Numbered from the stretch's first letter, positions 8,675-54,030 are shown. The stretch is 64,000 bases of DNA from an uncultured Alphaproteobacteria bacterium (GCA_944390195.1 CALXOZ010000002.1:14380-78379); one strand, 5' to 3'. The notes: generated by a model not told the origin, from the letters alone. Translations and numbers: made by a program.

Positions 8675-8935
8675 TCAGTCTTCCAATTTCATACGCAGAA
8701 AACGCATGAAATCCGCTTTGTCATAAGGGGGATCGAATTTTTCCAACGCCTCATCAACGGCTTTGTTGATTTCGCGTTCGGAGGCATTATCATAAGTCAT
8801 CTTTAATTGGTTGACCAGTTGTTCTCTTTGAGATTCTTGATCAGGCGAAAAAGAATTCTGATCAATATTATTTTGTTGTTGTTTTTGTTGAATTTTTTGT
8901 TGAGCTTCTTCCAACCAAGACATACACCCCTCCAT
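8675..8935 (-). CDS. hypothetical small acidic protein (last gene of the hydF transcript)
   Basis: 86 aa ORF with Gln-rich and acidic composition. It sits tightly downstream of the 95-aa gene (4-nt gap). No recognisable family. Confidence 0.4.
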   Translation of the reverse strand: MEGCMSWLEEAQQKIQQKQQQNNIDQNSFSPDQESQREQLVNQLKMTYDNASEREINKAVDEALEKFDPPYDKADFMRFLRMKLED

Positions 8936-8939
8936 TGTT

Positions 8940-9227
8940 TTAAGGTGTCAATTCCATTCCGGTGTAATAACATTGCCGTGTATCAATATCTCTTTCTTTG
9001 ATTTCATTTAAAGCGGCTTCTCGGATATGCTTATGTCTCCAATTTTTAGTCCCTTGGCATAAATCTTTCAAGGGAGCCTTTTGCGCCCATTCTTTTGCCT
9101 CAATCGGTAGTGCGTATTCTTTTTCATAAAAAGGTTGAAGGGTTGACGGGTCGTTGTGGCCGCAACAGGCAAGCAGACAGCAAGAAGCTACAAAAAGAGT
9201 GTTTTTTAAAAGAATATTTTGACTCAT
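8940..9227 (-). CDS. hypothetical small Cys-rich lipoprotein/secreted protein
   Basis: 95 aa. Signal peptide with lipobox-like LLAC|C and 6 Cys. The start overlaps the hydF stop (ATGA), implying translational coupling. Confidence 0.5.
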   Translation of the reverse strand: MSQNILLKNTLFVASCCLLACCGHNDPSTLQPFYEKEYALPIEAKEWAQKAPLKDLCQGTKNWRHKHIREAALNEIKERDIDTRQCYYTGMELTP

Positions 9228-10419
9228 AGGTACATCTCAAACGGTTTGATAACGCGATCCAAGACCCCCTGCATGGCGGAAAGGGTCATTCCGAAGTTTG
9301 TAACAGGGACATGATTACGCTGGCATTCATGAATTCTCCGTAAAGTTTCCAATCGTGACAGCATACACCCCCCACAGTGAATAACAAGTTTAAATTGATT
9401 AAGATTTTCAGGAAAGTCCGTTCCTGCCGACCATTCAAAAATAATATTCTTGTTCAGAACTTTTTTAATGACGGCGGGAATTTTTTTTCGTGCAATGTCA
9501 TCGTCTTGGACATGGTGAGAACAAGCTTCAGCAATCAAGACACGATCATTGTCCTTGAGAAGTTGCAATTGTTTCGCCCCATCGTAAAAAGATTTGAGAT
9601 CTCCTTTATAACGGGCGAACAAGGTTGAAAAAGTCGTTAAAGGGACGGATTGTGGAACAACGGTATCAACCTGTCGTATCAATTGAGAATCCGTAATGAC
9701 CAAAGACGGCGGGTTTTTGAGATTTTCTAAGATATTTAAAAAATCGGAATGATTCTGAACGACATACGCATAAGCGTGCGCATCCAAGATGTCTCTGATG
9801 ACCTGGACTTGAGGCAGGATCAATCGCCCTTTCGGCGCGGAAGAATCAATAGGAGCGATACAAACGACTGTTTGGTTTTCTTTTATCAGGTCTCGAACCA
9901 GATCCGGATGAGGTTTGAGATGCTTGGATAAGACGTTTTTGATTAAAGTTTTTAATCCGTCGATATTTTGGTGGTTTAAAGCGGAAACGCGAATGGACGG
10001 GAAAGACGGGGATTCAGATGGATTTAAGCTGTTTTTATCACTTTTATTAAAGACGACAATAAAGGGGATTTTTAAATCGTCGAACTTTTTGATTAAATCC
10101 AGTTCATGTGTTTGGATTCCCGTTTCGTCGACAACCAATAAAGCGATATCGACTTTGTTAAGGATTTTTTTTGTGGCGGCGATTCTCAAAGATCCGATTT
10201 CTGCAGTGTCATCTATGCCGGCGGTATCAAAGAAAGTAACCGGACCGACTGGGATTAATTCATAAATTTTTGAAACGGCGTCGGTTGTCGTTCCGGGAGT
10301 GTCGGAAACGATTGAAACCTGTTGATTGCACATAGCGTTTAACAAAGAAGATTTTCCGGCGTTTCTTCTGCCAAACAAGCCAATATTGATCCGTTCGCCA
10401 CGAGGTGCTGTCTGCATGA
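9224..10419 (-). CDS. hydF: [FeFe]-hydrogenase maturation GTPase HydF-like
   Basis: G1 'GRRNAGKSS', G3 'DTAG', G4 'NKSD'. The C-terminal 'CSHH-(about 45 aa)-HCGGC' matches the HydF FeS-binding motif CxHx44-53HCxxC. Start taken at the second ATG (MQTAPRG…) with an AAAGGA RBS; the ORF track extends to 10444. Confidence 0.75.
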
Positions 10420-10529
10420 TAAATCCTTTAAAAAAAAGAATCACTTTTCTCTTTCTTTATACCTTTTTTTAGCTTTTATCTGAAAAAATATTTTCAAATA
10501 AATTTTTTATTTTTCAGGTGTAGTTTAAT

Positions 10530-11465
10530 TTGATTAAAAATAAATATATAAAGTCTGTTTTTGCATATGGGGCAATATTTTGTTTTTTGACAGGAATGTC
10601 CGATTCCGTAATGGCGGGTGCTTTTACCGATCCGGCAGACAATGCCTATTCGTTGAAAAAAGTTTTCACCCGTCCTTATTTGCAAAATACTCCGATTCCA
10701 AAAGTGTGGCAGGTTGATGCATCTTCTCCAAATTTCAAAGGGGCTCTGCTGGATTCTCTAACACCGCAAACACAAACGGAATTGCAACTGGACTCTTTGT
10801 TACGCGAACTTGATGCTTTGGATCGTCAGAACGATTATCGGAATATGGCGGTTGTTTCACCTTTTTTTGATATGAAAGCCGTTACCCGTCTTTTAAATGA
10901 AATGGTTCCTGTCGTGGAACAGGTTCAAAGGGAAACGTTGTCCGATTTAAAAGAAGTGGAAAAACGGTCGGAAAGATATCAACAAGAAAGTTTGAAGACG
11001 GAAGAAACACAATTCAATCAGTCGTTGGTTGATTTGTCTTCTTTTTTCGCTTCTTTGAGTGAAACGGCTCGTATGGACGTGGAAATGGATTTTTTGGAAA
11101 AATCGCTTGAAGATACTTGTGAAACACAGATGCTTTTCGATTTGAACAATTCGTTTTTGTCCGAAAACATTTTAAATAAAGCCGAAAATATCCATTTGTC
11201 GGAAACTGAAGATGTGCAAATACGCAACCAGACAGAAGAAATTTTTTATTCGTTGTTGATTAACGATATGATGGATCTGTCAACGGGAATAGGGACTTTC
11301 GAACAAGATAGCTCCTTTTTTGCACCGGATGATAATAAAAATATTTCAAAATCCGCCTCTTTGCTTGACAGAACGAATAAAACTGATCAAATTCAAAATG
11401 ATGATCCTGCATCAAAAAAACAATCTTTATTTAAAAAGCTGGAAAAATTTTTAAAAAAGAAGTAA
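10530..11465 (+). CDS. hypothetical secreted acidic protein
   Basis: 311 aa. With the TTG start there is a signal peptide (KNKYIKSVFAYGAIFCFLTGMSDSVMA|GA). The mature part is acidic and low-complexity. Located 18 bp upstream of the TolC-like gene. Confidence 0.5.
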   Translation: MIKNKYIKSVFAYGAIFCFLTGMSDSVMAGAFTDPADNAYSLKKVFTRPYLQNTPIPKVWQVDASSPNFKGALLDSLTPQTQTELQLDSLLRELDALDRQNDYRNMAVVSPFFDMKAVTRLLNEMVPVVEQVQRETLSDLKEVEKRSERYQQESLKTEETQFNQSLVDLSSFFASLSETARMDVEMDFLEKSLEDTCETQMLFDLNNSFLSENILNKAENIHLSETEDVQIRNQTEEIFYSLLINDMMDLSTGIGTFEQDSSFFAPDDNKNISKSASLLDRTNKTDQIQNDDPASKKQSLFKKLEKFLKKK

Positions 11466-11482
11466 AAACTTAAGGACGTAAG

Positions 11483-13525
11483 ATGAAGAAAAAGTTGGAT
11501 ACCTTTTTAATGCAAAAGAAAATTTTGAAAAGAACGTCCTTTTTGACGGCGTCGGCAATAGCCTTATTCATAGGGGCTTGTACCGTAGAACCCGAACCGT
11601 TGAGCGATTGGGAGCGTGCCGTCCGTGTTGATCAGGATATTCAGGAAATGTTCCAAGATCAACGTTCTCAAAGGATCGTAGAACCGTTGACCTTATATGA
11701 TGCTATGGCAAGGGCTTTGAAGTATAACTTGAAAGCTCGATTGAAAATGATGCAAACGGCTTTGGCGACAAAACAATATGACAAAGTAACTTTGGATATG
11801 TTGCCACAAGTTTCTCTTGGCGCCGGTTATTCGGGCAGAAACAATTATGAAGCCGTCGTTTCAAAATCCATGCAAAACGGGCTTGTATCTCAAGATGCCG
11901 AAGCTTATAGCGCAAAAACGCACGGTGTCGCAAATGCTCAGATCAGTTGGAACATTTTGGATTTCGGCGTCAGCTATTATCAGGCAAAGCAAGACGCAAA
12001 CAACATCTTGATCGCCAAAGAACAAAGACGTAAACAAGTCCAGTCTTTGTTGCAGGAAGTACGGGCTGCTTATTGGCGGGCTCTGGCTGCTGAAAGGTTG
12101 TCCGGAAAAATCGATGATTTGATGGAAGAAGCGACATTCGTTCTGGAAAAATTACGTTCAACGGAAAACCAGACAAGCGGGGATTCAACTGTTTTGTTGA
12201 ATTATCAAATGGCGTTGATGGAAACAATGCGCGATTTGAGCGAAATGAAAAAAGAGTTGATGATCTCGCGTGAACAATTGGCCTCTTTGATGAATCTCAA
12301 ACCGGGAACACGCTACAGGTTGGTCGGACCGGAAAATGGTAATTTCGTGTTGCCGGAAATCAGATCCAGTCTGGATCGCTTGGAATGGCTCGCCTTGATG
12401 AACCGTCCGGAATTAAGAGAAGAAGATTATAAACTTCAAAACACTCGTATTGCTGCAAAAAAGGCTTTATTAAAATTATTGCCCGGTCTGAACCTTTCCA
12501 TATCGGCAAATTATGATTCCGATGACTTCCTCGCCAATAATTCATGGTTGGAAGCGGCGGCTATGTTAGGGTGGAATTTGTTAAATCCTGCTCAGATGCA
12601 ACGTACGCTGGCGTATGGCGAAGTCAAAGAAGCCGTCGATAATTTAAATCGGCAGGTCATTGCTATGACGGTTTTGACGCAAACGCATGTCGGATGGGGT
12701 AGATACCAAACAGCCAAAGAAACTTATCAATTAAGCGTCGAAATTGCCGATGTTGCCCGTAAGTTGGCAGAACAAGCGTCCGATAACGTAAAAACAGATG
12801 TTTTAGCTGAGGCGGAAAAAATATCCTCTGCCGCCAGAGCTCTGTTCGCCGAATTGCGTTCATCAATGAATTTCGCCGAATTGCAAGACGCGACAGGTTA
12901 TGTGTTTGTAACTTTGGGGTTGGATCCTTTACCGGAAAACTTCGCTTCCAGTGATATAAATTCAATTTCTTCAGCTTTGCAACGTGTCATGACGGCTTGG
13001 GATATGGGGCGTTTCACAAACGAAGATTATCCTCGTTTGCCACCTGTTCCAAGGCATAGACCGCCAGTATATATTGATGCGAAGTTCCCGGCTAAAAAGG
13101 TTACGGAAAATACACGCTTTATTGTAACAATAGATCCGAATGTCTTTGCAGAAGCCGATTTAGGGCAAGATGTCGTTTATACCGCAACTTTGAGAAATGG
13201 AGCAAAGTTGCCGTCTTGGTTGTTCTTTGATTCAAAAACGCTCACCTTGTCCGGTAGACCTCCTGCAAATTCGGAAGGAATATATGAAATAAAGATAATG
13301 GCTAAAAATAAAAAGAAAATGAGTGCCTATATCTTTATGACCATTCAGGTTCAACGCGGATACAAGACAATTCTGGATATGAGAGGGGCGGAACCCGATT
13401 CTATTGTGACAGTCATTCAACGTTGCGACGGATCCGAATTGTGTGAAGATTATCAAAATATCCGTCAAATTGATATGTTCCCGGAACCTGTAACGGTTTC
13501 TCCGTTACCAATGCCGAAAAAGTAA
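11483..13525 (+). CDS. TolC/NodT-family outer-membrane efflux lipoprotein with C-terminal cadherin-like (He_PIG/putative Ig) domain
   Basis: 680 aa. Lipobox FIGAC. Residues about 60-480 carry outer-membrane-factor repeats (LTLYDAMARALKYNL…, …LLPGLNLS…). The C-terminal about 200 aa contain 'VYTATLRNGAKLPSWLFFDSKTLTLSGRPPANSEGIYEIKIMAKN', which matches the He_PIG/dystroglycan-type cadherin-like consensus (PSWLxFDxxTxTLSGxP…GxYxIxI). Confidence 0.75.
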   Translation: MKKKLDTFLMQKKILKRTSFLTASAIALFIGACTVEPEPLSDWERAVRVDQDIQEMFQDQRSQRIVEPLTLYDAMARALKYNLKARLKMMQTALATKQYDKVTLDMLPQVSLGAGYSGRNNYEAVVSKSMQNGLVSQDAEAYSAKTHGVANAQISWNILDFGVSYYQAKQDANNILIAKEQRRKQVQSLLQEVRAAYWRALAAERLSGKIDDLMEEATFVLEKLRSTENQTSGDSTVLLNYQMALMETMRDLSEMKKELMISREQLASLMNLKPGTRYRLVGPENGNFVLPEIRSSLDRLEWLALMNRPELREEDYKLQNTRIAAKKALLKLLPGLNLSISANYDSDDFLANNSWLEAAAMLGWNLLNPAQMQRTLAYGEVKEAVDNLNRQVIAMTVLTQTHVGWGRYQTAKETYQLSVEIADVARKLAEQASDNVKTDVLAEAEKISSAARALFAELRSSMNFAELQDATGYVFVTLGLDPLPENFASSDINSISSALQRVMTAWDMGRFTNEDYPRLPPVPRHRPPVYIDAKFPAKKVTENTRFIVTIDPNVFAEADLGQDVVYTATLRNGAKLPSWLFFDSKTLTLSGRPPANSEGIYEIKIMAKNKKKMSAYIFMTIQVQRGYKTILDMRGAEPDSIVTVIQRCDGSELCEDYQNIRQIDMFPEPVTVSPLPMPKK

Positions 13526-13556
13526 TCTAAAAAAATTCTAAATTCATATATTTATA

Positions 13557-13590
13557 TCTTCTCCTGTAAAAAGCGGGAGAAGATTTTTTT
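13557..13590 (+). terminator. rho-independent terminator after the TolC-like gene
   Basis: tcttctcc-N11-ggagaaga stem followed by T7. Confidence 0.7.
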
Positions 13591-13603
13591 ATGAAAATTC
13601 ACT

Positions 13604-13788
13604 AATTCTAAAAAATATTGTGTATTTTGGGGTATCTCGATAACCTATAATAGATCTGTCTCAATCAATCGCTTCTTTTCGTTGAAAGGAAAACATTCCG
13701 CTTAATAATGTCAAGCCAGCTTGCCTTTCTATTGTGATAAAACCGAACCGATCTGTGTATAAACTCGTTTAAATTCCTTCCACAGCTT
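13604..13788. repeat. composite repeat copy 1 (unit A 106 bp directly abutting unit B 76 bp)
   Basis: A (aattctaaaaaatattgtgtattttggggtatctcgataacctataatagatctgtc…ccgcttaataat) is identical to 14568-14673. B (aagccagcttgcctttctattgtgataaaaccgaaccgatctgtgtataaactcgtttaaattccttccacagctt) is about 97% identical to 14826-14901. Confidence 0.9.
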
Positions 13789-14567
13789 TCAGATTTATTG
13801 TATATTCCCGCTTGAGGGGCGAAGGACATTTTTTTGATTCAAGTGTTTTCAGATTTATAAGTATATGAAATTCCGGTTGAGAAAGCGGTTTTCCATTTTT
13901 TTAAAGATAATGAAAATTAAACTTTCTTTGTTTTGATGCTTATAAAAAACTATTAATCTGCCAGTTTTTTTGAAATTCTTTTATTGTGAAAGCCTGTCAT
14001 ATGCCAAAATAAAAAATTTAAATTGAAATGCTGTAAACTTGGTTTATGACTTTTAGTGCTTCAGATCCTGAGGACTGAAATTCTTACAGGATATTGGTAT
14101 TAAATCACTATTTGAAATATTTTTGATTCTATATCCCTATATCAAAATCACATGGATATAACATGATAATAAAATATTTCACACAATAAATTGTATGTAA
14201 AAAATTTTAAAGACAATTTGTTTGAATGAAGCTTTATTCAAAAATATAAATCTTTTTAAGAAAGTTATTAATAAAAGAAAACATTCCTTATAAAACGTTA
14301 GTTTCTGTTTTGTGTATAACTTCCCATATTGCCATCTAGACTTGAATAGCGTTTTATTTGGCTGGATGCGTAATTTGTTACTTATAACCGTAAACAGAAA
14401 AATGTCTGATGTAGTATGTTATTCCCAACTGTTTTATATATATAAGGTATCTGGCGATGATTTATGTTTTTGTCTGCCGTATCTTTAAATACCATTGCTT
14501 TAAAACCGTTTATTGCGATATTTAAAATTCATGTTCTATTCATAGATCATCAAACTTATATTTCAGA

Positions 14568-14901
14568 AATTCTAAAAAATATTGTGTATTTTGGGGTATC
14601 TCGATAACCTATAATAGATCTGTCTCAATCAATCGCTTCTTTTCGTTGAAAGGAAAACATTCCGCTTAATAATCAACTTTAGTATGTCGTTATTTGCATC
14701 GCTGAATTTGATCGCAAGCTTTTTCCATAAAAGCGTTCTAAGACAGCGCCGACGTTCTTCTTGCAAAGACGGCGATGTATTTGGACGATCTGTCTTGAGT
14801 CTTCCATGAAAAGGTTAAGCCCGCTTGCCTTTCTATTGTGATAAAACCGAACCGATCTGTGTATAAACTCGTTTAAATTCCTTCCACAGCTTCCAGAAAG
14901 C
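14568..14901. repeat. composite repeat copy 2 (unit A and unit B split by a 152-bp unique insert)
   Basis: Same A and B units as 13604-13788, with 14674-14825 inserted between them. Both copies lie inside a 2.3-kb gene-free AT-rich block. Confidence 0.9.
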
Positions 14902-15475
14902 GTGCATAAGATATCTGCTGACCTGTTTTTATCGACGATGCGTGCTATCGCATAAGCGCTAATAACTTCGTGCAAGTTTTATACCGTACAATCATAGCCA
15001 TCTGAAAGCCATCTTTCTTTACTTTTCGGAAAATAACCTGATGATATTTCTATCAATGCTAGATTAAATTGCAGAAATCTTCGGTCTCACCGGTTGCTTA
15101 GGTCTTAAAGAAGTGTTACACACAATAGTGTGGGAGTTTTTTAGGGGGAGGGAGATGGCTATTCTTTCAATTTTCTCTAAAGTTCTTTTTTGTTTGAAGA
15201 TGGGCAATCTCAAAATGATCTTTATTATTGGTTACTTCTAACAAAACGACGGATTTTTTTGTCTGAAATGCGGATTAAAATTGTAATAAGATTTTTTCTT
15301 TGTTTCTCGGGATAACAGTGTCAGCATTATATAAACTGTAAGCTGTCATCTTTTTATAATCTTCTTTTTTAACTTCGATGTGCTGTAAAAGATGACGATC
15401 ATTGAGATGATTTTCTGAATATTTTCTCTGTTTTTTACCGTTTTTCGCCATAATATAGAGCAAACACAGCAAACA

Positions 15476-15510
15476 CATCATTCATTATAATTACTCTTGA
15501 CGTTAATGTC
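15476..15510. repeat. about 35-bp repeat D (second copy at 42866-42900)
   Basis: atcattcattataattactctt(tt)gacNtNaatgt is present in two distant gene-free regions. Confidence 0.6.
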
Positions 15511-15554
15511 TATCTGCCGGGCAGAATTTCATTCTATATCAAAAGATCGGTTTT

Positions 15555-15665
15555 GTGCGTAATTGCGAATGCGTTTAGCAACGATTTTTACGATTTTCAA
15601 TGATGTTTCCGTTAATAAAATTGCACGTTCGATATATCAGCTAAATGTCCTAAGCAGTAGGAATC
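15555..15665 (-). pseudogene. decayed fragment of the GGDEF-domain gene (paralogous to 20534-20645)
   Basis: About 110 bp alignable to the intact gene at 20534-20645 in the same orientation. Minus-strand translation gives RDS-YCLGHLADISNVQF* versus parent RDSDYLGRLADIEFAILL, with in-frame stops. Confidence 0.75.
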
Positions 15666-15693
15666 TCTTGACTATAAACTTGCCGGAATCACA

Positions 15694-15747
15694 TGCATAA
15701 AGAAGTCATGAATTTTTAATAAAAACGTATCATCTATAAATTTCCGA
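15694..15747. repeat. 54-bp perfect direct repeat C, copy 1 (flanks 15823-16521 gene)
   Basis: tgcataaagaagtcatgaatttttaataaaaacgtatcatctataaatttccga is identical to 16705-16758. Confidence 0.9.
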
Positions 15748-15822
15748 CAGGCGCGAAAGTTTCCTTATAAAAAAACAAGACCAATAATAAAATTGGTCTT
15801 GATAATAATCGATATAAATAAC

Positions 15823-16521
15823 TTAACGTCCTTTTGCAGCATTCATTGCTGCTATGTTTATAGGATTTAAAGTTTTGTTGTTCTTTTTTTCTCTTTGATC
15901 AACCGTTTTAAAGGAGCTCGGTGTAACAATTAAAAGTTCCTCTTTGACAGATTTCGGATTTTGCTTATACATTTCATATTCCTGCGCTGAAAGAGGCATG
16001 GCAATATAATAAGTCAACTTAGTTCCCGCACGTTCAGGGAAATAACCGTTGCGTTTATCCATAGCTGAATGAACATTTTGATGAATATCTCTGTTAGGCG
16101 TATTCGGAAGGGGCATCATACAACGCCAATCATGGATTGATGATAACACTTCGTTTCCGAATTGAACGGGACCCTTTTTAAAAGAACCACTGATAGCGCG
16201 CGGAAACAAATGGTGATAATTATAACCATTCGGAGTTTTTCCGTTGGCGACAAATTCAAAAATCTGTTTATCTGTCATTCCTGCTTGACGTAAACGTGAT
16301 ATTCCTTCTTTATTTTCCGATCCGTCAGGATTATAAACAGTATCTTTGAGCAACTGCGCTCTAACCTGTTTATATTCTTCATAAACCTTTTTGTTTTCTT
16401 CCGGAGATATACGAATTCCTTTTACAGGAACCCATTTGAAAACGAACTCTGGGCTATTGATGTTGTTTTGAAAAGAGGGCTTTTTTCCTTTGCTTTTGCG
16501 TTTTGTATGTATATATGTCAT
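15823..16521 (-). CDS. hypothetical protein with HH-hydrophobic-P / N…H motif (possible HNH-fold, AHH-like nuclease)
   Basis: 232 aa with a basic N-terminus. 'NGYNYHHLFPR…GNEVLSSIHDW' resembles the [A/L/S]HH-hh-P…N…H arrangement of HNH-superfamily toxin nucleases. No other homology recognised. Flanked by repeat C. Confidence 0.45.
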   Translation of the reverse strand: MTYIHTKRKSKGKKPSFQNNINSPEFVFKWVPVKGIRISPEENKKVYEEYKQVRAQLLKDTVYNPDGSENKEGISRLRQAGMTDKQIFEFVANGKTPNGYNYHHLFPRAISGSFKKGPVQFGNEVLSSIHDWRCMMPLPNTPNRDIHQNVHSAMDKRNGYFPERAGTKLTYYIAMPLSAQEYEMYKQNPKSVKEELLIVTPSSFKTVDQREKKNNKTLNPINIAAMNAAKGR

Positions 16522-16704
16522 GAATTAATTCCTTCTATTAAAAGGCATTATGACTGAAAAAAATTTTTTTGTCCAGTTTTTTGTGAAATAAAAGAAAAAT
16601 ATATGGACAAAATTTTTCAATTTGCAGTGATTATCTCATTAAAGAGAAATTAAAAAAAAAGATGAACAAATTTTATGTTTTTTAATTAAATAGAAAATTA
16701 CAAC

Positions 16705-16758
16705 TGCATAAAGAAGTCATGAATTTTTAATAAAAACGTATCATCTATAAATTTCCGA
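16705..16758. repeat. 54-bp perfect direct repeat C, copy 2
   Basis: Identical to 15694-15747. Confidence 0.9.
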
Positions 16759-17295
16759 GATATCCCGAGGTATGTGATTTTTTAAGGACATTGTAGATAC
16801 GATTGTTTCACAAGATGTCGTTTTAAAAATTCTTCTAGAACATATCAAAACAACTTGTAAAAATAACACAAGACAATCTTATCGTCCTGTTGTTGAAAAT
16901 TTTTCTTCTTGTTATTAAAAATTGGAGATATTCCATAAACATATGAGTTATGATCTTGATCAATTCAAGCTGAAATTCACTGAAGGGCTGAATGTTTATT
17001 TCCCCAACTACGGAGCAGATTGTTTTTCATAAGAAAAGTTTGTTGGGATACATCTTTTTTTATTTATATTGTATTTGTTTATTTATATACGGGAACAATC
17101 TTTGATTTAAGCTGTTGTGGTCTAGGTTCAGTTTATAATTAAAGCAATAGAAATTTGCGCTATCGTCTGAAAAAAGGATTCTGAAAAAAGGATATTGTGC
17201 CGATAAGTTAAAAAGCGCAAAAAGTTGTGAATGCGTAAAATAAAAGACTCCGGTTGAAACGGTCGGTTAAAAATTTTATGAAGGAAAAACTTTTT

Positions 17296-17323
17296 CAGGC
17301 GTGGCCGGTAAAGGCGACGCCTG
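17296..17323 (-). terminator. putative terminator hairpin downstream of pntB
   Basis: caggcgt-N14-acgcctg stem about 35 nt past the pntB stop, followed on the minus strand by gaaaaagttttt. Confidence 0.4.
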
Positions 17324-17358
17324 TTGCATAAATGTTTTTCAATATGGAATTTGTTTTT

Positions 17359-18753
17359 TTATTCTTTTAGGTAATGATTAATTTCTTCGGTGACTTTTTT
17401 TGCATCACCTAACAACATCATCGTGTTTTGAGCATAAAAGACGGGATTGTCAATACCGGAATATCCGGTTCCTTTTAATGAGCGCTTGACTATAATGACA
17501 TGATGAGCCTTTTCCACATCCAAAACGGGCATACCGAAAATAGGGCTGGAAGGGTCTGTTTTTGCCAATGGATTAGTTACGTCATTAGCTCCGATGACAT
17601 AAACGACGTCCGTTTCCGTAAAAGCTGAATTAATATCTTCAAGCTCAAAAACGTCTTCATAGGGAATTTTTGCTTCTGCCAGTAATACATTCATGTGCCC
17701 TGGCATTCGTCCTGCGACGGGATGAATGGCATATTTTACATCAATTCCGTCTTTTTTCAGTAACGTTGCCATTTCTTCCAAGCCGAACTGTGATTGGGCA
17801 ACAGCCATTCCGTACCCCGGAACGATAATCACTTTTCGAGCATTTTTTAACAAGACGGCAGCATCTTCAGCGGATCCGATATGAGCCGGTTTTTCTTCAT
17901 TTTGTGTTTCATGATCAACCTGATTTTGTTTTAATCCCGCAAACAAAACATTAAAAATCGAACGATTCATTGCTTTGCACATAATGTAGGATAAAATTGC
18001 TCCTGAAGAACCGACTAAGGCTCCGGTAATGACCAATAAACTGTTTTTAAGTGTGAAACCGATTCCCGCCGCAGCCCAACCGGAATAAGAGTTCAACATG
18101 GAAATGACGACAGGCATATCCGCTCCTCCGACAGGCAGAATAAGCAAAAAACCTAAGGCGAAGGATAATAATGTTACAATGAAAAAGGAAATTCCGGATT
18201 GCGTTTTTGTGAAATGAGCAATTAAGATGATCAAGACAATACATAATGCAATATTCAAGATGGATTGTCCTTTGAAGCGAAGTGGTTTTCCAGACAACAG
18301 CCCTTGCAACTTTGCGAAAGCGACGACCGATCCAGAAAACGTCAAAGCACCGATAGCAACGCCTAAAGCCATTTCAATCAAGCTTGAAACAGCTATGGCA
18401 CCGGATGATCCTATACCGTAAGTGCTTGGAGACAAAAACGAAGCCCAAGCCACAAAGACGGCTGCCAATCCGACCAAGCTGTGGAAAGCGGCGACCAATT
18501 GGGGAAGGGCGGTCATCGCTATGCGTTTTGCAATGATCAATCCGATTACGGCACCGATTGCAATGGCGGCAATGATAAAGCTGTAAGATGAAACAACAGG
18601 AGAAAATAAAGTGGCACAAACAGCGATGATCATTCCCGCTATGCCAAAGACGTTTCCCTTGATTGCTGTTTTAGGCGATGATAATCCGCGCAAGGAAAGA
18701 ATGAAAAAAACAGCGGAAATCAGGTAAAGAAAAGCGCTATAATTGACGGTCAT
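17359..18753 (-). CDS. pntB: NAD(P) transhydrogenase subunit beta
   Basis: 464 aa. N-terminal polytopic membrane domain plus C-terminal NADP(H)-binding dIII (…VIIVPGYGMAVAQ…GANDVTNP…). Confidence 0.92.
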   Translation of the reverse strand: MTVNYSAFLYLISAVFFILSLRGLSSPKTAIKGNVFGIAGMIIAVCATLFSPVVSSYSFIIAAIAIGAVIGLIIAKRIAMTALPQLVAAFHSLVGLAAVFVAWASFLSPSTYGIGSSGAIAVSSLIEMALGVAIGALTFSGSVVAFAKLQGLLSGKPLRFKGQSILNIALCIVLIILIAHFTKTQSGISFFIVTLLSFALGFLLILPVGGADMPVVISMLNSYSGWAAAGIGFTLKNSLLVITGALVGSSGAILSYIMCKAMNRSIFNVLFAGLKQNQVDHETQNEEKPAHIGSAEDAAVLLKNARKVIIVPGYGMAVAQSQFGLEEMATLLKKDGIDVKYAIHPVAGRMPGHMNVLLAEAKIPYEDVFELEDINSAFTETDVVYVIGANDVTNPLAKTDPSSPIFGMPVLDVEKAHHVIIVKRSLKGTGYSGIDNPVFYAQNTMMLLGDAKKVTEEINHYLKE

Positions 18754-20347: not shown

Positions 20348-21487
20348 TTATGCCGGAGATTCTGCTACGGCAATATTGTTTTGTCGTTCTTTGGTTGAAC
20401 GCAAGGCATTAAAAGCGCGTAATAAAAGCGAATCGATTGTTTCATCCGTATCTGTTCGTGTCGCGATGCTTATACTTGTGGTAACGGTGATTTTTATATT
20501 TCCGACCATCAGATTTGATTTCATGACTTCATCGCGAATGCGCTCAGCAACGATTTTTGCGCCTTCCAATGGTGTTTCCGGTAATAAGATCGCAAATTCG
20601 ATATCGGCCAAACGTCCTAAGTAATCGGAATCCCTGATGGAATTTTGACAAGCTGTTACGGCGACTTTTATTGCTTCATCGCCGAATGCCGACCCGTGCT
20701 CGTTATTTAAAGCTTCGAAACGGTCAATGGTCATTAAAAGAACGGACAAGTTCCGTTTATAACGTCTTGCCCGTTTCATTTCTTTTGCTCCGTCTTCCAA
20801 GAACTGACGTCTGTTCAATACGCCGGTAACAGGATCGATTACAGTCATTTGACGTAATTCTTCTTCCAATTGTTTGCGCGGTGTTATATCGAACCCGACA
20901 GAACGGATTTCAGCCGGACGTCCATCGGGCCCGTAAATAATCCGGTTTGTCCATGAAATCCAAACTCTTCTGCCGTTTTTGCAAATATTTTCATTTTCAT
21001 TATCGACATACAGGCGCGGGTTGTTTTTAATGCGTTCAATCAAATTTGTTAAAGTTTGTCCGCGGGAATCTTTAGTTGGAACGATGGTACCGATAATATT
21101 TTTACCGATGAGTTCACTTTTATCGTTATAACCGTAAAATTCGCAGGCATAATCATTAACAGACAGGAGTATACCGTCTTTATCCATACAGATAAATAAA
21201 CTTTTCGTACCGGGGGAAGAGTATGGATCGAACTGGCGATGGCGTTCTTTTTTCATATCTTCCAATTCCTTTTGTACGGAAATTAAAGTATTTTGTAATT
21301 CAACGACTTTGTTTTTCAAGGCAATTTTTTTTGTTCTGCAAGATAAAAAGCGATAAAACAAATATATCAATGCAAAACTTAACACGAAACACAAAACAAC
21401 GGGCAATGATATAAACCCTGATGACTGAGATATTTTTCCTTCGGGCAGAAGAATTGTTTGAAAGTTGAAATAGGCTGAAAACGGCAT
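20348..21487 (-). CDS. membrane-anchored PAS–GGDEF-domain protein with degenerate active site (ADIEF instead of GG[DE]EF)
   Basis: 379 aa. N-terminal TM, PAS-like region, and a GGDEF fold recognisable by 'IDRFEALNNEHGSAFGDEAIK' and 'RYKRNLSVLLMTIDRF'. The signature reads 'GRLADIEFAILLPE'. Confidence 0.75.
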   Translation of the reverse strand: MPFSAYFNFQTILLPEGKISQSSGFISLPVVLCFVLSFALIYLFYRFLSCRTKKIALKNKVVELQNTLISVQKELEDMKKERHRQFDPYSSPGTKSLFICMDKDGILLSVNDYACEFYGYNDKSELIGKNIIGTIVPTKDSRGQTLTNLIERIKNNPRLYVDNENENICKNGRRVWISWTNRIIYGPDGRPAEIRSVGFDITPRKQLEEELRQMTVIDPVTGVLNRRQFLEDGAKEMKRARRYKRNLSVLLMTIDRFEALNNEHGSAFGDEAIKVAVTACQNSIRDSDYLGRLADIEFAILLPETPLEGAKIVAERIRDEVMKSNLMVGNIKITVTTSISIATRTDTDETIDSLLLRAFNALRSTKERQNNIAVAESPA

Positions 21488-27235: not shown

Positions 27236-28453
27236 TTACCTGTTTTTGTTATTTTTCAAAAGCGTCAAAAGAGCGGGGTGAACTTTTCTATCCGAAGTGT
27301 CTTTCAAAGATCTGTTTTGATCGGAAGCATTTTCAGAAGCAGCACGTCTTCCATACATACTGCCTCTGGACGGAAGATCGACATAACTTTTATCTTCCTG
27401 TTTTCCGGTTAAATTTTTTCTGGATTGGAAGAAAAGGTCGGCTGCATTTTTTGTTTCGGTTGATATTCCGCACATTTTTGGGTCATCCAATATATTGGGG
27501 TTATCTTTAAAATAGCATTGACCGTTTGATGTTTGGCAAAACATTTCGACGATTTCTTTGGAAGACATATTTCCTTCAAAAGGAAGCTCTTCAAATGTTT
27601 TCAATTGATCGTCTTTTTTTTGGAAAGCGATGCTTGTCAAATTAAAATAGAGATAATCTTCTTCATAGATATCAACTGTATTTTTTTGTTCAAACCATCC
27701 TTTAAAGGCGTCTTGCATTGTTTTGCTTTGATTTTCAATGACTTTTTCAACAGGCGCATCTTTTGACGGGGCAGAAATGGCATTTGCGATTAAAGGATAA
27801 GAGGAACAGAATTTTTGCCAGACTTTGGAATCTCTTGTTGTAGCTCTGATTTCTAAAGCGACTTGTGCGGCGGTAGCTTGAGCATCAGCTTCGGCGGCGC
27901 GATTCAACTTGACCTCGGTAGCAAGATCTTTCTGGCACAACATATCGGGAAGCCCGCGAGAATGTTGATAGACGTGTCTGACTTCATGTGCCAAAGTTGT
28001 TTTTAATTTTGCATCACTGCAACACGGGTTGATCATGACAATATTTTTTGTCGGATCGAAATACCCGTAACCGGTATCCTGATAATCGAAGCCTATTTTT
28101 GTGCCGTGTTCAGCAGCGTTTTGTAGCAAACTTCTTCCGGTTTCCGAATTTTTTGCAATGGAATTGATCAAAGCGGTCAGACGTTTTTTTTCATTTTTCG
28201 ATCCTGTCAATTCAATATCAACGACAGGAGGTTCATTTTTATAAAAACCGCGGACGAAAGGGGAGGAATAAAGTGTATGAAAAAAAGATTTTTTCATTTC
28301 ATGTTTTTTTTGTTCGATTTTCATCAGAGTTTCTATAAGATGACTATTTCCTTCAATATTTTGAGGGGATGAAAAAATTTGATTAAGCATGGAAGGATTT
28401 TTTGGTTTTCCTTGTGTTTTATTTTCTTGATGAATTTGATCGAAAAAAGACAT
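27236..28453 (-). CDS. hypothetical protein with HExxHxxQ zinc-metallopeptidase-like motif (DUF4157-like) and about 240-aa unknown C-terminal region
   Basis: 405 aa. '…GYGYFDPTKNIVMINP…TTLAHEVRHVYQHSRG' resembles the DUF4157 pattern (G..F/Y…I.……LLAHELTHVVQ). No signal peptide. The C-terminal region is unrecognised. Confidence 0.5.
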   Translation of the reverse strand: MSFFDQIHQENKTQGKPKNPSMLNQIFSSPQNIEGNSHLIETLMKIEQKKHEMKKSFFHTLYSSPFVRGFYKNEPPVVDIELTGSKNEKKRLTALINSIAKNSETGRSLLQNAAEHGTKIGFDYQDTGYGYFDPTKNIVMINPCCSDAKLKTTLAHEVRHVYQHSRGLPDMLCQKDLATEVKLNRAAEADAQATAAQVALEIRATTRDSKVWQKFCSSYPLIANAISAPSKDAPVEKVIENQSKTMQDAFKGWFEQKNTVDIYEEDYLYFNLTSIAFQKKDDQLKTFEELPFEGNMSSKEIVEMFCQTSNGQCYFKDNPNILDDPKMCGISTETKNAADLFFQSRKNLTGKQEDKSYVDLPSRGSMYGRRAASENASDQNRSLKDTSDRKVHPALLTLLKNNKNR

Positions 28454-32859: not shown

Positions 32860-33020
32860 GGCTGAAGAAAAAACGTAAAAAGAGGTTGAAGAAACAATTC
32901 AACTGCGTTAAAGTTAAGCCCGCAAATCGGGGGAGTTTTTCTTGACGTCTGATTTGCCGATGTCGGGAAAACATTCCCTTCTATTTAAATCTTTCATTTT
33001 ATTTCTTGGAGAAAAAATCC

Positions 33021-36578
<3,558 letters not shown>

Positions 36579-51079: not shown

Positions 51080-51821
51080 ATGGTTTGATAATGCTATTAT
51101 CATCAGTGTTAAGAAATTCGGGGAACAAGACGGTATCATTTCTTTTTTGACAGGAAATCATGGTCGGTATGTCGGGCTATGTAAAGGGGCTTTTTCAAAA
51201 AGACTGGTTGGAACCGTCCAGCTTGGGAACTTGGTACAAATAAAATGGAATGCGCGTTTGGAAGAACATTTGGGCAAGGTGAAAGTCGAATTGGAAAGTG
51301 CTTATGCCTCACGTTTTTTTTCAGATTCCGGACGTTTACTGACATTATCCTGTTTATGCGGGATGTGCTCTTTATTGCCGGAACGCGAGAATGTAACAGA
51401 TTTTTTTGAAAAGACATTACAACAAATTATTTTGTTGGAAACCGAAAATTTTCAGGAACGTTACGCTAGATGGGAAGTGGAGTTGTTAAAAACATTAGGT
51501 TTCGGATTGGACTTATCTTCCTGCGCTTTGACAGGGACAACAGAGGATTTGGTTTACGTTTCTCCAAGAACAGGGCGGGCAGTATGTCGTTCGGCGGGGT
51601 TGGCTTGGAAAGATAGATTATTACCTTTACCCACGTTCCTGAAAGCTGATAATCTGGCTGCAAGTAATACTCTGGAAGTAAAAAAAGCTTTAGATTTAAC
51701 AGGATTTTTCCTTGAAAATCATGTTTCAAAAACGCTAGACTGCTCTATTCCGGCAGTCAGACGACGATTGGTTTATTATTTACAAACGAACAGACTTGTT
51801 TCAGGTGTTGAAAATGAATGA
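51072..51821 (+). CDS. recO: DNA repair protein RecO
   Basis: N-terminal OB fold (…IISVKKFGEQDGIISFLTGNHGRYVGL…) and C-terminal Cys cluster. Overlaps the era stop. Confidence 0.85.
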   Translation: MPEWFDNAIIISVKKFGEQDGIISFLTGNHGRYVGLCKGAFSKRLVGTVQLGNLVQIKWNARLEEHLGKVKVELESAYASRFFSDSGRLLTLSCLCGMCSLLPERENVTDFFEKTLQQIILLETENFQERYARWEVELLKTLGFGLDLSSCALTGTTEDLVYVSPRTGRAVCRSAGLAWKDRLLPLPTFLKADNLAASNTLEVKKALDLTGFFLENHVSKTLDCSIPAVRRRLVYYLQTNRLVSGVENE

Positions 51822-54030
51822 AAGTGAACAAATAAAAGAGACAAAAATGGCGGAAGCTTTGGCTGAACGCTATCTTGCTTATGCGATGTCAACAATTGTC
51901 TCCCGTTCATTGCCGGACGTGCGCGATGGGTTGAAACCAGTTCATCGCCGGTTGTTATATGCCATGAACGCACTGCATTTAGATCCTGAATCCGGATTTA
52001 AAAAATGTGCGCGTGTCGTCGGAGACGTTATTGGTAAATACCATCCTCACGGAGATACCGCCGTTTATGAAACAATGGTTCGTTTGGCTCAAGATTTCGC
52101 CGTTCGCTATCCTTTGGTTGAAGGACAAGGAAATTTCGGCAATATTGACGGAGACAGTGCCGCAGCCATGCGTTATACGGAAGCGCGCTTGACCGAAGTT
52201 GCCAAAGCTATTATGGACGGATTGAATGACGGTACGGTTGATTTCCGTCCGACGTATTCGGGGGAAGATATAGAACCTGTGATCATGCCATGCGCTTTTC
52301 CTAATTTGTTGGCGAACGGGTCGGCTGGAATTGCTGTCGGTATGGCAACGAATATAGCTCCGCATAATGTCGGAGAGCTTGCCGACGGATTGCAGTTGTT
52401 GATAAAAAAGCCGGATTGCAGTGTTGACGATTTGATGAAATTCATTCATGGACCGGATTTCCCGACGGGAGGGGAAATTGTTGAGCCATATGAAACTTTG
52501 TTGAAAATATACCAAACCGGACGCGGGGCAATGCGTGTCAGAGCAAAATGGGAAAAAGACGAACTGTCCCACGGTATGTATCAGATTATTGTTACCGAAA
52601 TTCCTTATATGGTGAAAAAATCGGAATTGATCAGTAAGACGGCTAAATTGTTATTAGAAAAAAAACTACCCTTTTTGGCCGATATCCGAGATGAATCCGC
52701 TGAAAACGTCCGTATTGTTTTGGAACCCAAAAACCGTAATATCGAACCTGAACAATTAATGGCTCATCTGTTCCGTTTGACCGATATGCAAGTCAATTTC
52801 AGTATGAATATGAATGTATTGGATAAAGACGGTGTACCGCGTGTAATGAATTTAAAACAGATTTTGCAGGCTTTTCTCGATCATCGACAAGAAGTCCTGA
52901 TCCGGCGTTCCAAGTTCCGGTTGGATAAGATCAATCATCGCATGGAAGTTTTGGAAGGATTTTTAATCGCCTTTTTAAATCTGGACGAAGTCATTCGTAT
53001 TATTCGTGAAGAAGATGATCCGAAAACGTCTTTGATGAAAGCGTTTCATTTGACGGAAGTCCAAACGGAGGCGATTCTGAATATGCGTTTACGATCCTTG
53101 CGCAAACTTGAAGAATTTCAAATCAAGTCCGAACATGAAGAATTGGCTGCCGAAAAAGAAAAATTAGAAGCTTTATTGAATAATGAAATGTTGAGATGGA
53201 AAGAAATTTCATCAGAAATTTCTTTAATGAAAAAAAAGTTCGGGCAGGGGACAAAACTCGGGAAACGGCGCACGGTCATATCTGGAGCTCCAGAGGAAAT
53301 TGAAATTCCTTTGGAAGCATTAATCGAACGTGAACCAATTACAGTTATTTTATCTGAAAAAGGGTGGATCAGGTCTGTAAAAGGACACATTCAATTAGAT
53401 GACGATATCAAATTCAAAGAAGGCGATCGGTTACAATGCGGCCTTCAAGCTCAAACGACGGATAAGATTTTAATGTTTGCAACAAACGGTCGATGTTATA
53501 CTTTGTCTGCCGATAAATTGCCTCGGGGCAGAGGGTTTGGAGAACCTGTCAGATTGTCGATAGATTTGCCAGAAGAAGATGAAATCATTTCTATGACGAT
53601 TTTTCACTCTGGAGAAAAAAGGCTAGTTCTTTCCAAAAAAGGGAAAGGATTTATTATTAAAGAAGACGATTTACTTGCGCAAACGAGAAACGGCAAGATC
53701 GTTTTAAATTTGATGCCGCAAGACAAAGCCTATCTTAACTTACCGGTAAAAGGGGATACTGTCGCCGTTATCGGAGACAATCGAAAGTTATTGATTTTTG
53801 ACTTGTCCGAAATTCCGGAAATGACACGAGGGCAAGGGGTGTTCGTTCAAAAATATCCTAAAGGTGTTGGTTTGTCAGACATAAAGTTGTTTAATAAAGC
53901 TGATGGATTAGCCTATCCTTGTGGTGGGGGGACAAGAATAGAAACAAACTTGCTGGGGTGGATCGGACATCGCGCTCAAATAGGAAAATTGCCACCTGTG
54001 GGCTTTCCTAAAAGCAATAAGTTTTCATAA
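51814..54030 (+). CDS. parC: DNA topoisomerase IV subunit A
   Basis: GyrA/ParC N-terminal breakage-reunion domain (…[28 protein letters not shown]…). C-terminal beta-pinwheel lacking the GyrA box, hence ParC. The paralog gyrA (58545-61334) carries QRRGGKG. Confidence 0.88.
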   Translation: MNESEQIKETKMAEALAERYLAYAMSTIVSRSLPDVRDGLKPVHRRLLYAMNALHLDPESGFKKCARVVGDVIGKYHPHGDTAVYETMVRLAQDFAVRYPLVEGQGNFGNIDGDSAAAMRYTEARLTEVAKAIMDGLNDGTVDFRPTYSGEDIEPVIMPCAFPNLLANGSAGIAVGMATNIAPHNVGELADGLQLLIKKPDCSVDDLMKFIHGPDFPTGGEIVEPYETLLKIYQTGRGAMRVRAKWEKDELSHGMYQIIVTEIPYMVKKSELISKTAKLLLEKKLPFLADIRDESAENVRIVLEPKNRNIEPEQLMAHLFRLTDMQVNFSMNMNVLDKDGVPRVMNLKQILQAFLDHRQEVLIRRSKFRLDKINHRMEVLEGFLIAFLNLDEVIRIIREEDDPKTSLMKAFHLTEVQTEAILNMRLRSLRKLEEFQIKSEHEELAAEKEKLEALLNNEMLRWKEISSEISLMKKKFGQGTKLGKRRTVISGAPEEIEIPLEALIEREPITVILSEKGWIRSVKGHIQLDDDIKFKEGDRLQCGLQAQTTDKILMFATNGRCYTLSADKLPRGRGFGEPVRLSIDLPEEDEIISMTIFHSGEKRLVLSKKGKGFIIKEDDLLAQTRNGKIVLNLMPQDKAYLNLPVKGDTVAVIGDNRKLLIFDLSEIPEMTRGQGVFVQKYPKGVGLSDIKLFNKADGLAYPCGGGTRIETNLLGWIGHRAQIGKLPPVGFPKSNKFS

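Follow-up and report, generated by a model that had tools for sequence, protein, structure and literature searches.

A TolC-family outer-membrane factor with a predicted periplasmic He_PIG domain, paired with a Sec-signal protein at the position of LEPR-motif cargo, in an uncultured alphaproteobacterium

We analysed a stretch of 64,000 nucleotides (nt) of DNA, hereafter the window, from an uncultured Alphaproteobacteria bacterium (GCA_944390195.1, CALXOZ010000002.1:14380-78379), focusing on two adjacent plus-strand genes that encode an acidic upstream protein (UP) and a TolC-family outer-membrane factor (OMF) of 680 amino acids (aa) carrying a C-terminal He_PIG domain (Table 1). AGGTG precedes the start codon of UP by 8 nt, and a Shine-Dalgarno-like AAGGA stands at the same distance from that of the OMF gene. 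The intergenic gap is 17 nt, close to the 18 bp given in an earlier reading of this DNA (hereafter the sequence-only reading), and in relatives the two genes overlap by 4 bp. The hairpin at 13556 is predicted to be the end of a two-gene operon; the short gap, the ribosome-binding sites and this terminator together make the pair look bicistronic. The neighbouring hydF gene (9224-10444, minus strand; TIGR03918 E 1e-153) is transcribed divergently from the pair, and the open reading frames (ORFs) downstream of the pair are on the opposite strand, as that reading had noted for the next gene. Its remark that no inner-membrane partner of the ATP-binding cassette (ABC), resistance-nodulation-division (RND) or membrane fusion protein (MFP) type is adjacent also held: no ABC, RND or adaptor gene adjoins the pair, and none was found among the large ORFs of the window scanned against Pfam.

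Table 1. Features of the UP-OMF locus, in window coordinates.
Feature	Position	Strand	Details
Upstream gene, UP	10530..11465	+	ORF, 311 aa; TTG start
UP predicted Sec signal peptide, aa 1-29	10530..10616	+	n-region KNKYIK, h-region VFAYGAIFCFLT, predicted cleavage VMA↓G
OMF-He_PIG gene	11483..13525	+	ORF, 680 aa; ATG start
OMF lipoprotein signal peptide	11483..11581	+	lipobox LFIGA-C33; C33 invariant in 80 homologues
OMF (TolC-family) core, aa 34-510	11582..13012	+	two OEP repeats, four beta-strands, long helices
Pro-rich linker, aa 511-536 (RFTNEDYPRLPPVPRHRPPVYIDAKF)	13013..13090	+	7 Pro in 26 residues
He_PIG (dystroglycan-type cadherin-like) Ig-like domain, aa 537-624	13091..13354	+	Pfam PF05345
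C-terminal tail, aa 625-680	13355..13525	+	two more strands, Cys pair, Pro-rich end, stop codon
Terminator-like hairpin	13556-13584	+	12-bp stem, then T run; 30 nt 3' of OMF stop
AT-rich stretch	13595..17358		GC ~0.32; ~3.8 kb where the related loci L015 and L013 carry three partner genes
232-aa ORF, no Pfam family	15823-16521	-	sole ORF of the AT-rich stretch; lineage-specific paralogue family

The larger protein can be assigned by its lipobox to the NodT-type lipoproteins and is thus predicted to be lipid-anchored. Two of its stretches match the Pfam family OEP (80.3 bits, cutoff 22; E 2e-22), and its core closes with an equatorial helix (aa 492-507) and the conserved residues W506 and G509, which are also found in relatives without the fusion. 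An AlphaFold model computed from an alignment of 80 sequences, with a predicted local distance difference test (pLDDT) score of 80, shows the canonical OMF fold as far as about aa 478-507, with a first half composed of helices, two strands, a 73-residue helix, a 35-residue helix and an equatorial segment, followed by a second half of helices, two strands, a 66-residue helix and a 39-residue helix ending at aa 478. Next come the helix at 492-507 and a coil, after which the chain folds into a beta-sandwich (538-647; pLDDT 85-94). Foldseek matched the OMF part to TolC, OprM, OprJ, SilC and CusC, among others (E ~1e-13), with target-normalised TM-scores of 0.57-0.73 against TolC, OprM, OprJ and SilC, while sequence identity to solved OMFs is 12-17%. 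TIGR01844, the model for the type I secretion TolC subfamily, scored 32.2 bits, below its NCBIfam cutoff of 225. These results agree with the TolC/NodT-type identity proposed in the sequence-only reading.

The He_PIG domain named there was likewise recovered: PF05345 aligns with aa 537-623 over profile positions 10-95 of 96 and scores 53.2 bits (cutoff 24; E 4e-14). The beta-sandwich resembles the Ig-like domain of dystroglycan both by fold (Foldseek E ~3e-5) and in a sequence search of solved structures (E 2e-3). The linker ahead of it is strongly conserved in the clade that carries the fusion, R510, F511, T512, E514, D515, P521, V522, P523 and P527 being nearly or fully invariant. The 56-residue tail contains an invariant Cys pair (C648 and C654), probably disulfide-bonded, and the only other Cys of the protein is that of the lipobox. 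Chains of the unfused relatives stop ~25-33 residues past the conserved P484 (~25-50 in the adhesin-linked genera described below), near W506/G509, so that the true extension spans approximately aa 511-680; the ~170-196 residues by which the fused protein exceeds their length compare with the roughly 200 first estimated. A derivation of the tail from the C-terminus of an adhesin was considered and rejected, since nothing similar was seen beyond the He_PIG domain. The existing annotation of the fused protein is 'TolC family protein' only. Our literature search found no paper linking He_PIG to TolC, in keeping with the earlier remark that the combination is unusual, and on its predicted domains the protein would be a TolC-family member with an architecture that was not found described in the literature searched.

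The fusion is widely conserved. Fifteen independent metagenome contigs carry an identical copy of the gene pair, in which the 680-aa gene was called as intact; full-length fused orthologues form ~34 protein clusters (665-698 aa, 39-83% identity), all from uncultured Alphaproteobacteria; and when one genome was scanned for each GTDB species, 15 species proved to carry the fusion, all of them gut, rumen or faecal metagenome-assembled genomes (MAGs), including UBA6411, UBA2903, HGM16787, UMGS1574, 'Acetobacter sp. CAG:977', and sheep rumen and horse faeces isolates. Nonsynonymous divergence (pN) is far below synonymous divergence (pS) in core, linker, He_PIG domain and tail (pN ~0.2 against pS ~0.65 in the He_PIG domain), and every segment of the OMF is under purifying selection. 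A frameshift artefact joining two separate genes, which had been raised as a possibility, is ruled out by the contigs, by the orthologue clusters and species, and by the excess of pS over pN. The fusion is ancestral to this clade of uncultured Alphaproteobacteria from gut, rumen and faeces. In Pokkaliibacter (L037), what looked like an OMF-He_PIG fusion was discarded, because tblastn had joined adhesin repeats to the adjoining OMF.

The domain is almost certainly on the periplasmic side and not at the cell surface, as judged from the model and from OMF topology. Both chain ends of an OMF are periplasmic, with the C-terminus in the equatorial belt round the middle of the alpha-barrel (PMC8277102), and the AlphaFold model of the 680-aa protein agrees with this standard arrangement. 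The He_PIG domain would therefore be tethered in the periplasm beside the equatorial belt. The sequence-only reading had instead placed an adhesion-type domain at the surface, where it may link export with binding. Surface adhesins do typically contain He_PIG and cadherin-like domains, and the giant adhesins encoded beside the unfused OMF genes are built of them. However, to emerge at the surface the domain would first need to go down to the channel's periplasmic mouth and then through ~140 Å of tunnel, a total path of ~190 Å, and the 26-residue linker, with a reach of at most ~90 Å, would be too short for this. In addition, a member of the same OMF subfamily (P0090, 679 aa) carries a peptidoglycan-binding SPOR domain at the C-terminal position of the He_PIG domain, an arrangement that speaks for the periplasm, and the two invariant Cys residues with their probable disulfide fit the same compartment. 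OMF topology, short linker, SPOR relative and Cys pair leave the surface-adhesion idea unsupported, and we consider it very improbable; of the earlier structural expectation, the folded Ig-like domain stands, and its extracellular placement gives way to a predicted periplasmic one. Other C-terminal extensions in the subfamily (P0039, P0058, P0061, P0070, P0074, P0106, P0113, P0114) contain no Pfam domain; those of P0113 and P0114 (~644 aa) and P0074 (599 aa) are 100-180 aa long.

The nearest relatives without the fusion are ~500-aa 'TolC family proteins' from Pectobacterium, Dickeya, Pseudomonas, Stutzerimonas and Indioceanicola (loci L001-L003, L007-L010, L033-L096), which are 36-42% identical to the window protein over the whole core and with which it forms a distinct TolC subfamily. 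In every annotated context examined, the OMF gene is directly downstream of a gene for a giant protein (2200-4500 aa) that has an N-terminal DUF4347 and many He_PIG, Cadherin, PATR or Big repeats; a DUF4347 adhesin is immediately upstream of the OMF in Pectobacterium, Stutzerimonas and Indioceanicola, and the He_PIG domain of the fused OMF resembles the He_PIG repeats of these adhesins. A giant ORF (at least 1200 aa) was present in 56 of 68 unfused loci. The motif LE[PA]RxxFDGA was found near the start of an ORF ending ~50 nt before the OMF gene in 36 of the 68, and the loci that did not score for it mostly ran off the 8-kb flank. Where flanks sufficed, in Stutzerimonas (L007) and Indioceanicola (L009), the cluster also encodes one or two HlyD-type adaptor-like proteins (~270 and ~440 aa) and a ~700-aa protein in which an M50 intramembrane metalloprotease domain is joined to a HlyD-type barrel-sandwich region. 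The best NCBIfam match of the M50 domain is the daptide HExxH metalloprotease, at E 7e-42 to 7e-47 and below the family cutoff. No ABC transporter was found in the examined clusters of either the unfused or the complete fused loci described below. This gene set (LEPR giant adhesin, M50-HlyD fusion, HlyD-type proteins and OMF, with no ABC transporter) was not found described in our literature search, and is apparently widespread and undescribed. The fused OMF is, by its alignments and the contexts of its relatives, a member of the subfamily dedicated to LEPR-motif cargo.

The gene at the cargo position in the window is that of UP. The predicted signal peptide of UP has its hydrophobic maximum (2.05) at aa 10-21, and the probable cleavage site, VMA↓G, was aligned with the 'AAA↓DSF' site of homologues. 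The protein has a pI of 4.6, no Pfam or NCBIfam family and no RTX match, which bears out its first description as a secreted acidic protein of no known family. AlphaFold predicts an all-helical chain (pLDDT 66.6) with a 95-residue helix at aa 111-205 (pLDDT ~90), and a fold search of the model against the PDB gave no meaningful structural match. An exhaustive profile search of 1.84 billion representative proteins returned a family of only 26 members. Two of the most distant ones, P0144 (373 aa) and P0147 (377 aa), have no signal peptide, and their N-termini read '...LLALEPRYMYDAAG...', a motif shared with the N-termini of the giant adhesins. Profile-level homologues in five loci (L013, L015, L023, L024 and L031) carry 'LEPR[YH]M[YF]DAAG' in place of the signal peptide; these LEPR-type UPs are 370-380 aa long and very acidic. 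The window UP lacks the LEPRxxFD(G/A)A motif and has the Sec signal peptide instead. A hidden Markov model of 36 adhesin N-termini matched exactly six LEPR-type UPs (those of the five loci and P0147, a duplicate of the UP of L013) and none of the Sec type. At the profile level, the window gene is homologous to LEPR-bearing proteins, and it stands at the position of a cargo gene. The idea that UP is a miniaturised giant adhesin found no support, as searches of the UP profile against adhesins and of an adhesin C-terminal profile against UPs were both null; what the two share is the short N-terminal LEPR motif alone, and in LEPR-type UPs only.

Five gut-MAG loci (L013/14, L015, L023, L024 and L031) hold a complete five-gene set round the fused OMF. 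Its order in L013 is UP (LEPR type), an OMF-He_PIG of 681 aa that is 68% identical to the window protein, HlyD-type proteins of 222 and 449 aa, and a 703-aa M50+HlyD protein; across L013 and L015 the three partners measure 203-222 aa (HlyD-type), 449 aa (HlyD-type) and 698-703 aa (M50+HlyD). The flanks of L015 are those of the window, with HydF and two small ORFs on one side and PNT transhydrogenase genes, a GGDEF gene and SufB on the other, and its downstream order is OMF, MFP, 449-aa protein, M50 protein and PNTB. In the window, PNTB lies at 17359-18753 and the AT-rich stretch fills the place of the partners. Tblastn with the three partner proteins found no match in the whole 64-kb window, and pseudogene remnants of the partner genes, considered for 13.6-17.3 kb, were likewise not found. 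The three inner components (inner-membrane or periplasmic) are missing from the locus in the window's lineage. Because the complete loci have the fusion too, it predates this loss. In an approximate neighbour-joining tree the complete-system loci form one clade inside the fused clade, a nesting that indicates more than one loss. At the equivalent place in L004 there are four tandem paralogues of the 232-aa ORF (247-290 aa, 47-65% identity).

The type of leader on UP follows the presence of the partner genes. UP is of the LEPR type in all five complete loci and has a Sec signal in all 11 scorable loci in which partner genes were not seen, so that the pairing held in 16 of 16 scorable loci (two of the 11, L022 and L025, have no downstream flank and were scored for UP type only). 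This exact tracking of inner-component loss by the leader swap speaks for UP still needing both to leave the cytoplasm and to remain linked to the OMF.

Could the system still be complete, with its M50-adaptor and HlyD-type genes moved elsewhere in the genome? The 64 kb examined leave room for this, and the genes round the locus are ordered differently from those in L013 and L015 (the DUF6782 and sulfatase genes are one example). Nevertheless, a search of a whole database (5.8 billion clusters) with the M50-adaptor protein of L013 returned only five clusters at 47% identity or above, none of them assignable to the two-gene lineages, which are many and themselves well represented, their OMF clusters having as many as 80 member sequences. 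The contexts examined among the five (P0150, P0152 and P0154) lie in complete or partner-bearing loci, and the next-best match, at 40%, is in an unrelated genome context. The search thus gives no sign of such genes being kept elsewhere by the two-gene lineages, although this falls short of proof. Nor would one expect a LEPR-dependent system to accept a cargo whose leader has been exchanged for a Sec signal, and we regard relocation as improbable. A further view would see the pair as a decaying remnant, two genes left from a deleted operon and no longer functional; the deletion of three partner genes from the locus and the AT-rich filler DNA 3' of the OMF gene are what such decay might leave. 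Against it, at least 10 species keep both ORFs intact, pN is far below pS in every OMF segment, the ribosome-binding sites, terminator and gene overlap are preserved, and the identical pair recurs on 15 contigs, making this account extremely improbable.

The reading we favour is a streamlined two-gene module: the one-time cargo would have come under Sec delivery while keeping its working partnership with the OMF. We consider this evenly balanced, and its mechanism is one that we infer. UP would be a former cargo of a leader-dependent system that now reaches the periplasm via Sec, and the retained, translationally linked OMF may still act on it, either by releasing or displaying it at the surface through the channel as a second step or by holding it in a periplasmic OMF-UP complex. 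The mildly basic He_PIG domain would offer a possible docking site for the acidic, helical UP. Net charge is always acidic in UPs (-1 to -62), and that of the He_PIG domain lies between 0 and +8 in loci with a UP gene but is -2 and -3 in two orphans without one, a pattern that gives a weak hint of such docking.

The main rival holds that the OMF is a generalist orphan duct, like TolC of E. coli, serving unlinked ABC, RND or major facilitator superfamily pumps, with the He_PIG domain as a periplasmic brace or envelope contact, comparable to the lipoprotein YbjP on TolC or to the SPOR domain of a relative, and UP as an accessory periplasmic protein or an inherited neighbour. Genes of the tolC type are often unlinked to their pumps (PMC8277102), the more distant fused OMFs L011 and L012 persist as orphans with no UP gene, and the SPOR fusion of P0090 stands at the same position. 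What this account does not readily explain is that UP and OMF genes are kept adjacent, co-oriented and often overlapping in at least 10 species despite the fast evolution of UP, nor that the change from leader to signal peptide tracks inner-component loss exactly. We therefore hold the generalist duct to be possible but doubtful, and retain the streamlined two-gene module as the preferred reading.

Several points weigh against that preference. The resting state of an OMF channel is closed, and it is normally adaptor proteins that open it; OMF export of a periplasmic protein without an adaptor is not known to have a precedent. The UP model is of low confidence outside its long helix (predicted template modelling score, pTM, 0.26), and the charge correlation rests on two orphan loci only. 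The tree implies at least two independent losses and leader swaps, which is either of interest in itself or a sign that the tree is imprecise. As 64 kb of this genome were searched, the M50-adaptor or other partners could lie elsewhere, and all organisms of the fused clade are uncultured.

In its broadest form, the proposal would describe the conversion of an envelope-spanning, leader-dependent secretion into a two-step route, by Sec and then by an adaptor-free OMF with an Ig docking domain across or onto the outer membrane, whose parent would be an undescribed ABC-less machinery for LEPR giant adhesins across Proteobacteria. Taken whole, this is unlikely. OMFs are viewed as bare exit ducts that receive their specificity from adaptors; a folded, periplasmic Ig-like domain on a conserved OMF would be a new way of building recognition of partner or cargo into the duct itself. 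The gut clade offers a comparative experiment, with the same OMF and cargo family found with and without the inner components and the leader changing in step, and such a comparison can show the roles of the leader and of the M50-adaptor proteins. Since the gene set is present in culturable Pseudomonas, Pectobacterium and Dickeya, it is testable by genetics. This wider context, the ABC-less gene set together with its reduced clade, is the more interesting lead.

The remaining genes of the window are housekeeping genes of an anaerobe (SurE, PFOR, SpoT, GyrA/ParC, transhydrogenase, Suf), and the presence of PFOR and HydF indicates an anaerobic lifestyle of this alphaproteobacterium. PFOR (33006-36578) has a high local GC (~0.50), and two GyrA/ParC-type topoisomerase subunit A paralogues (51796-54030 and 58545-61334, both plus strand) lie less than 7 kb apart. 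Directly downstream of hydF are two small minus-strand ORFs of 86 and 95 aa (8675-8935 and 8940-9227) with no Pfam family, which are kept with hydF in all related MAG loci at 54-73% identity; the 95-aa product begins with a hydrophobic, Cys-rich stretch (CCLLACC) that resembles a lipoprotein signal. A gene for a PAS-GGDEF diguanylate cyclase (20348-21487, minus strand) is conserved at a distance of a few kb from the OMF locus, both in the window and in L004, L015 and L016. Several adhesin secretion systems are under the control of cyclic-di-GMP. One copy of a DUF6782 putative metallopeptidase gene (27236-28453, minus strand) is found 14 kb from the OMF locus in the window, and in complete-system relatives two or three tandem copies are directly upstream of UP-OMF (L013 5252-7771; L015 13-3996).

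Among known systems, the type I secretion of large adhesins (LapA/LapEBC, SiiE/SiiCDF) resembles this one in having a TolC-like OMF gene beside that of an acidic, repeat-rich or elongated exported protein and, in the window's relatives, HlyD-type adaptors. It differs in that the examined clusters have no ABC transporter, the motif is N-terminal (LEPRxxFDGA) and not a C-terminal one of the RTX type, and the relatives have an M50 intramembrane metalloprotease domain fused to an adaptor. Classical type I secretion is thus not what the locus encodes by its gene content, there being no ABC gene in the window locus or the complete clusters and no RTX match in UP. The unfused subfamily loci have the OMF gene immediately downstream of the cargo gene, as in the window; their cargo is a giant adhesin of 2000-4500 aa, whereas the window has at this position the gene for the 311-aa helical protein with a Sec signal, and M50 and HlyD genes are absent. 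Compared with trimeric tripartite systems of the TolC type, the window has no adaptor or transporter gene nearby, and adaptor genes adjoin its orthologues in L013, L015, L023, L024 and L031.

In enteroaggregative Escherichia coli, AatA exports the Sec-dependent dispersin Aap, and heat-stable enterotoxin, also delivered by Sec, exits via TolC. Both are precedents for two-step export, in which a protein bearing a Sec signal peptide then leaves across the outer membrane by a TolC-family channel. The two routes still need inner-membrane ABC and adaptor components (AatPBCD and MacAB), and no such components are linked to the window OMF. AatA and its C-terminal equatorial extension are mentioned in PMC8277102.

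With the solved members of the TolC/NodT group (PF02321; TolC 1EK9, OprM, OprJ, SilC), the window OMF has in common two OEP repeats, four strands and long helices per protomer; it shares an N-terminal lipobox with OprM and NodT, and an equatorial C-terminal segment with OMFs. None of the solved OMFs has its folded Ig-like extension of ~170 residues. YbjP is a separate DUF3828 lipoprotein, neither Ig-like nor fused to TolC, whose interaction with TolC is dispensable for efflux. In the YbjP-TolC complex (PDB 9v52, 9tg4; PMC13082787) it places a globular accessory domain on the periplasmic outer surface of the OMF with 3:3 stoichiometry, and it could therefore be a structural analogue of the tethered He_PIG domain.

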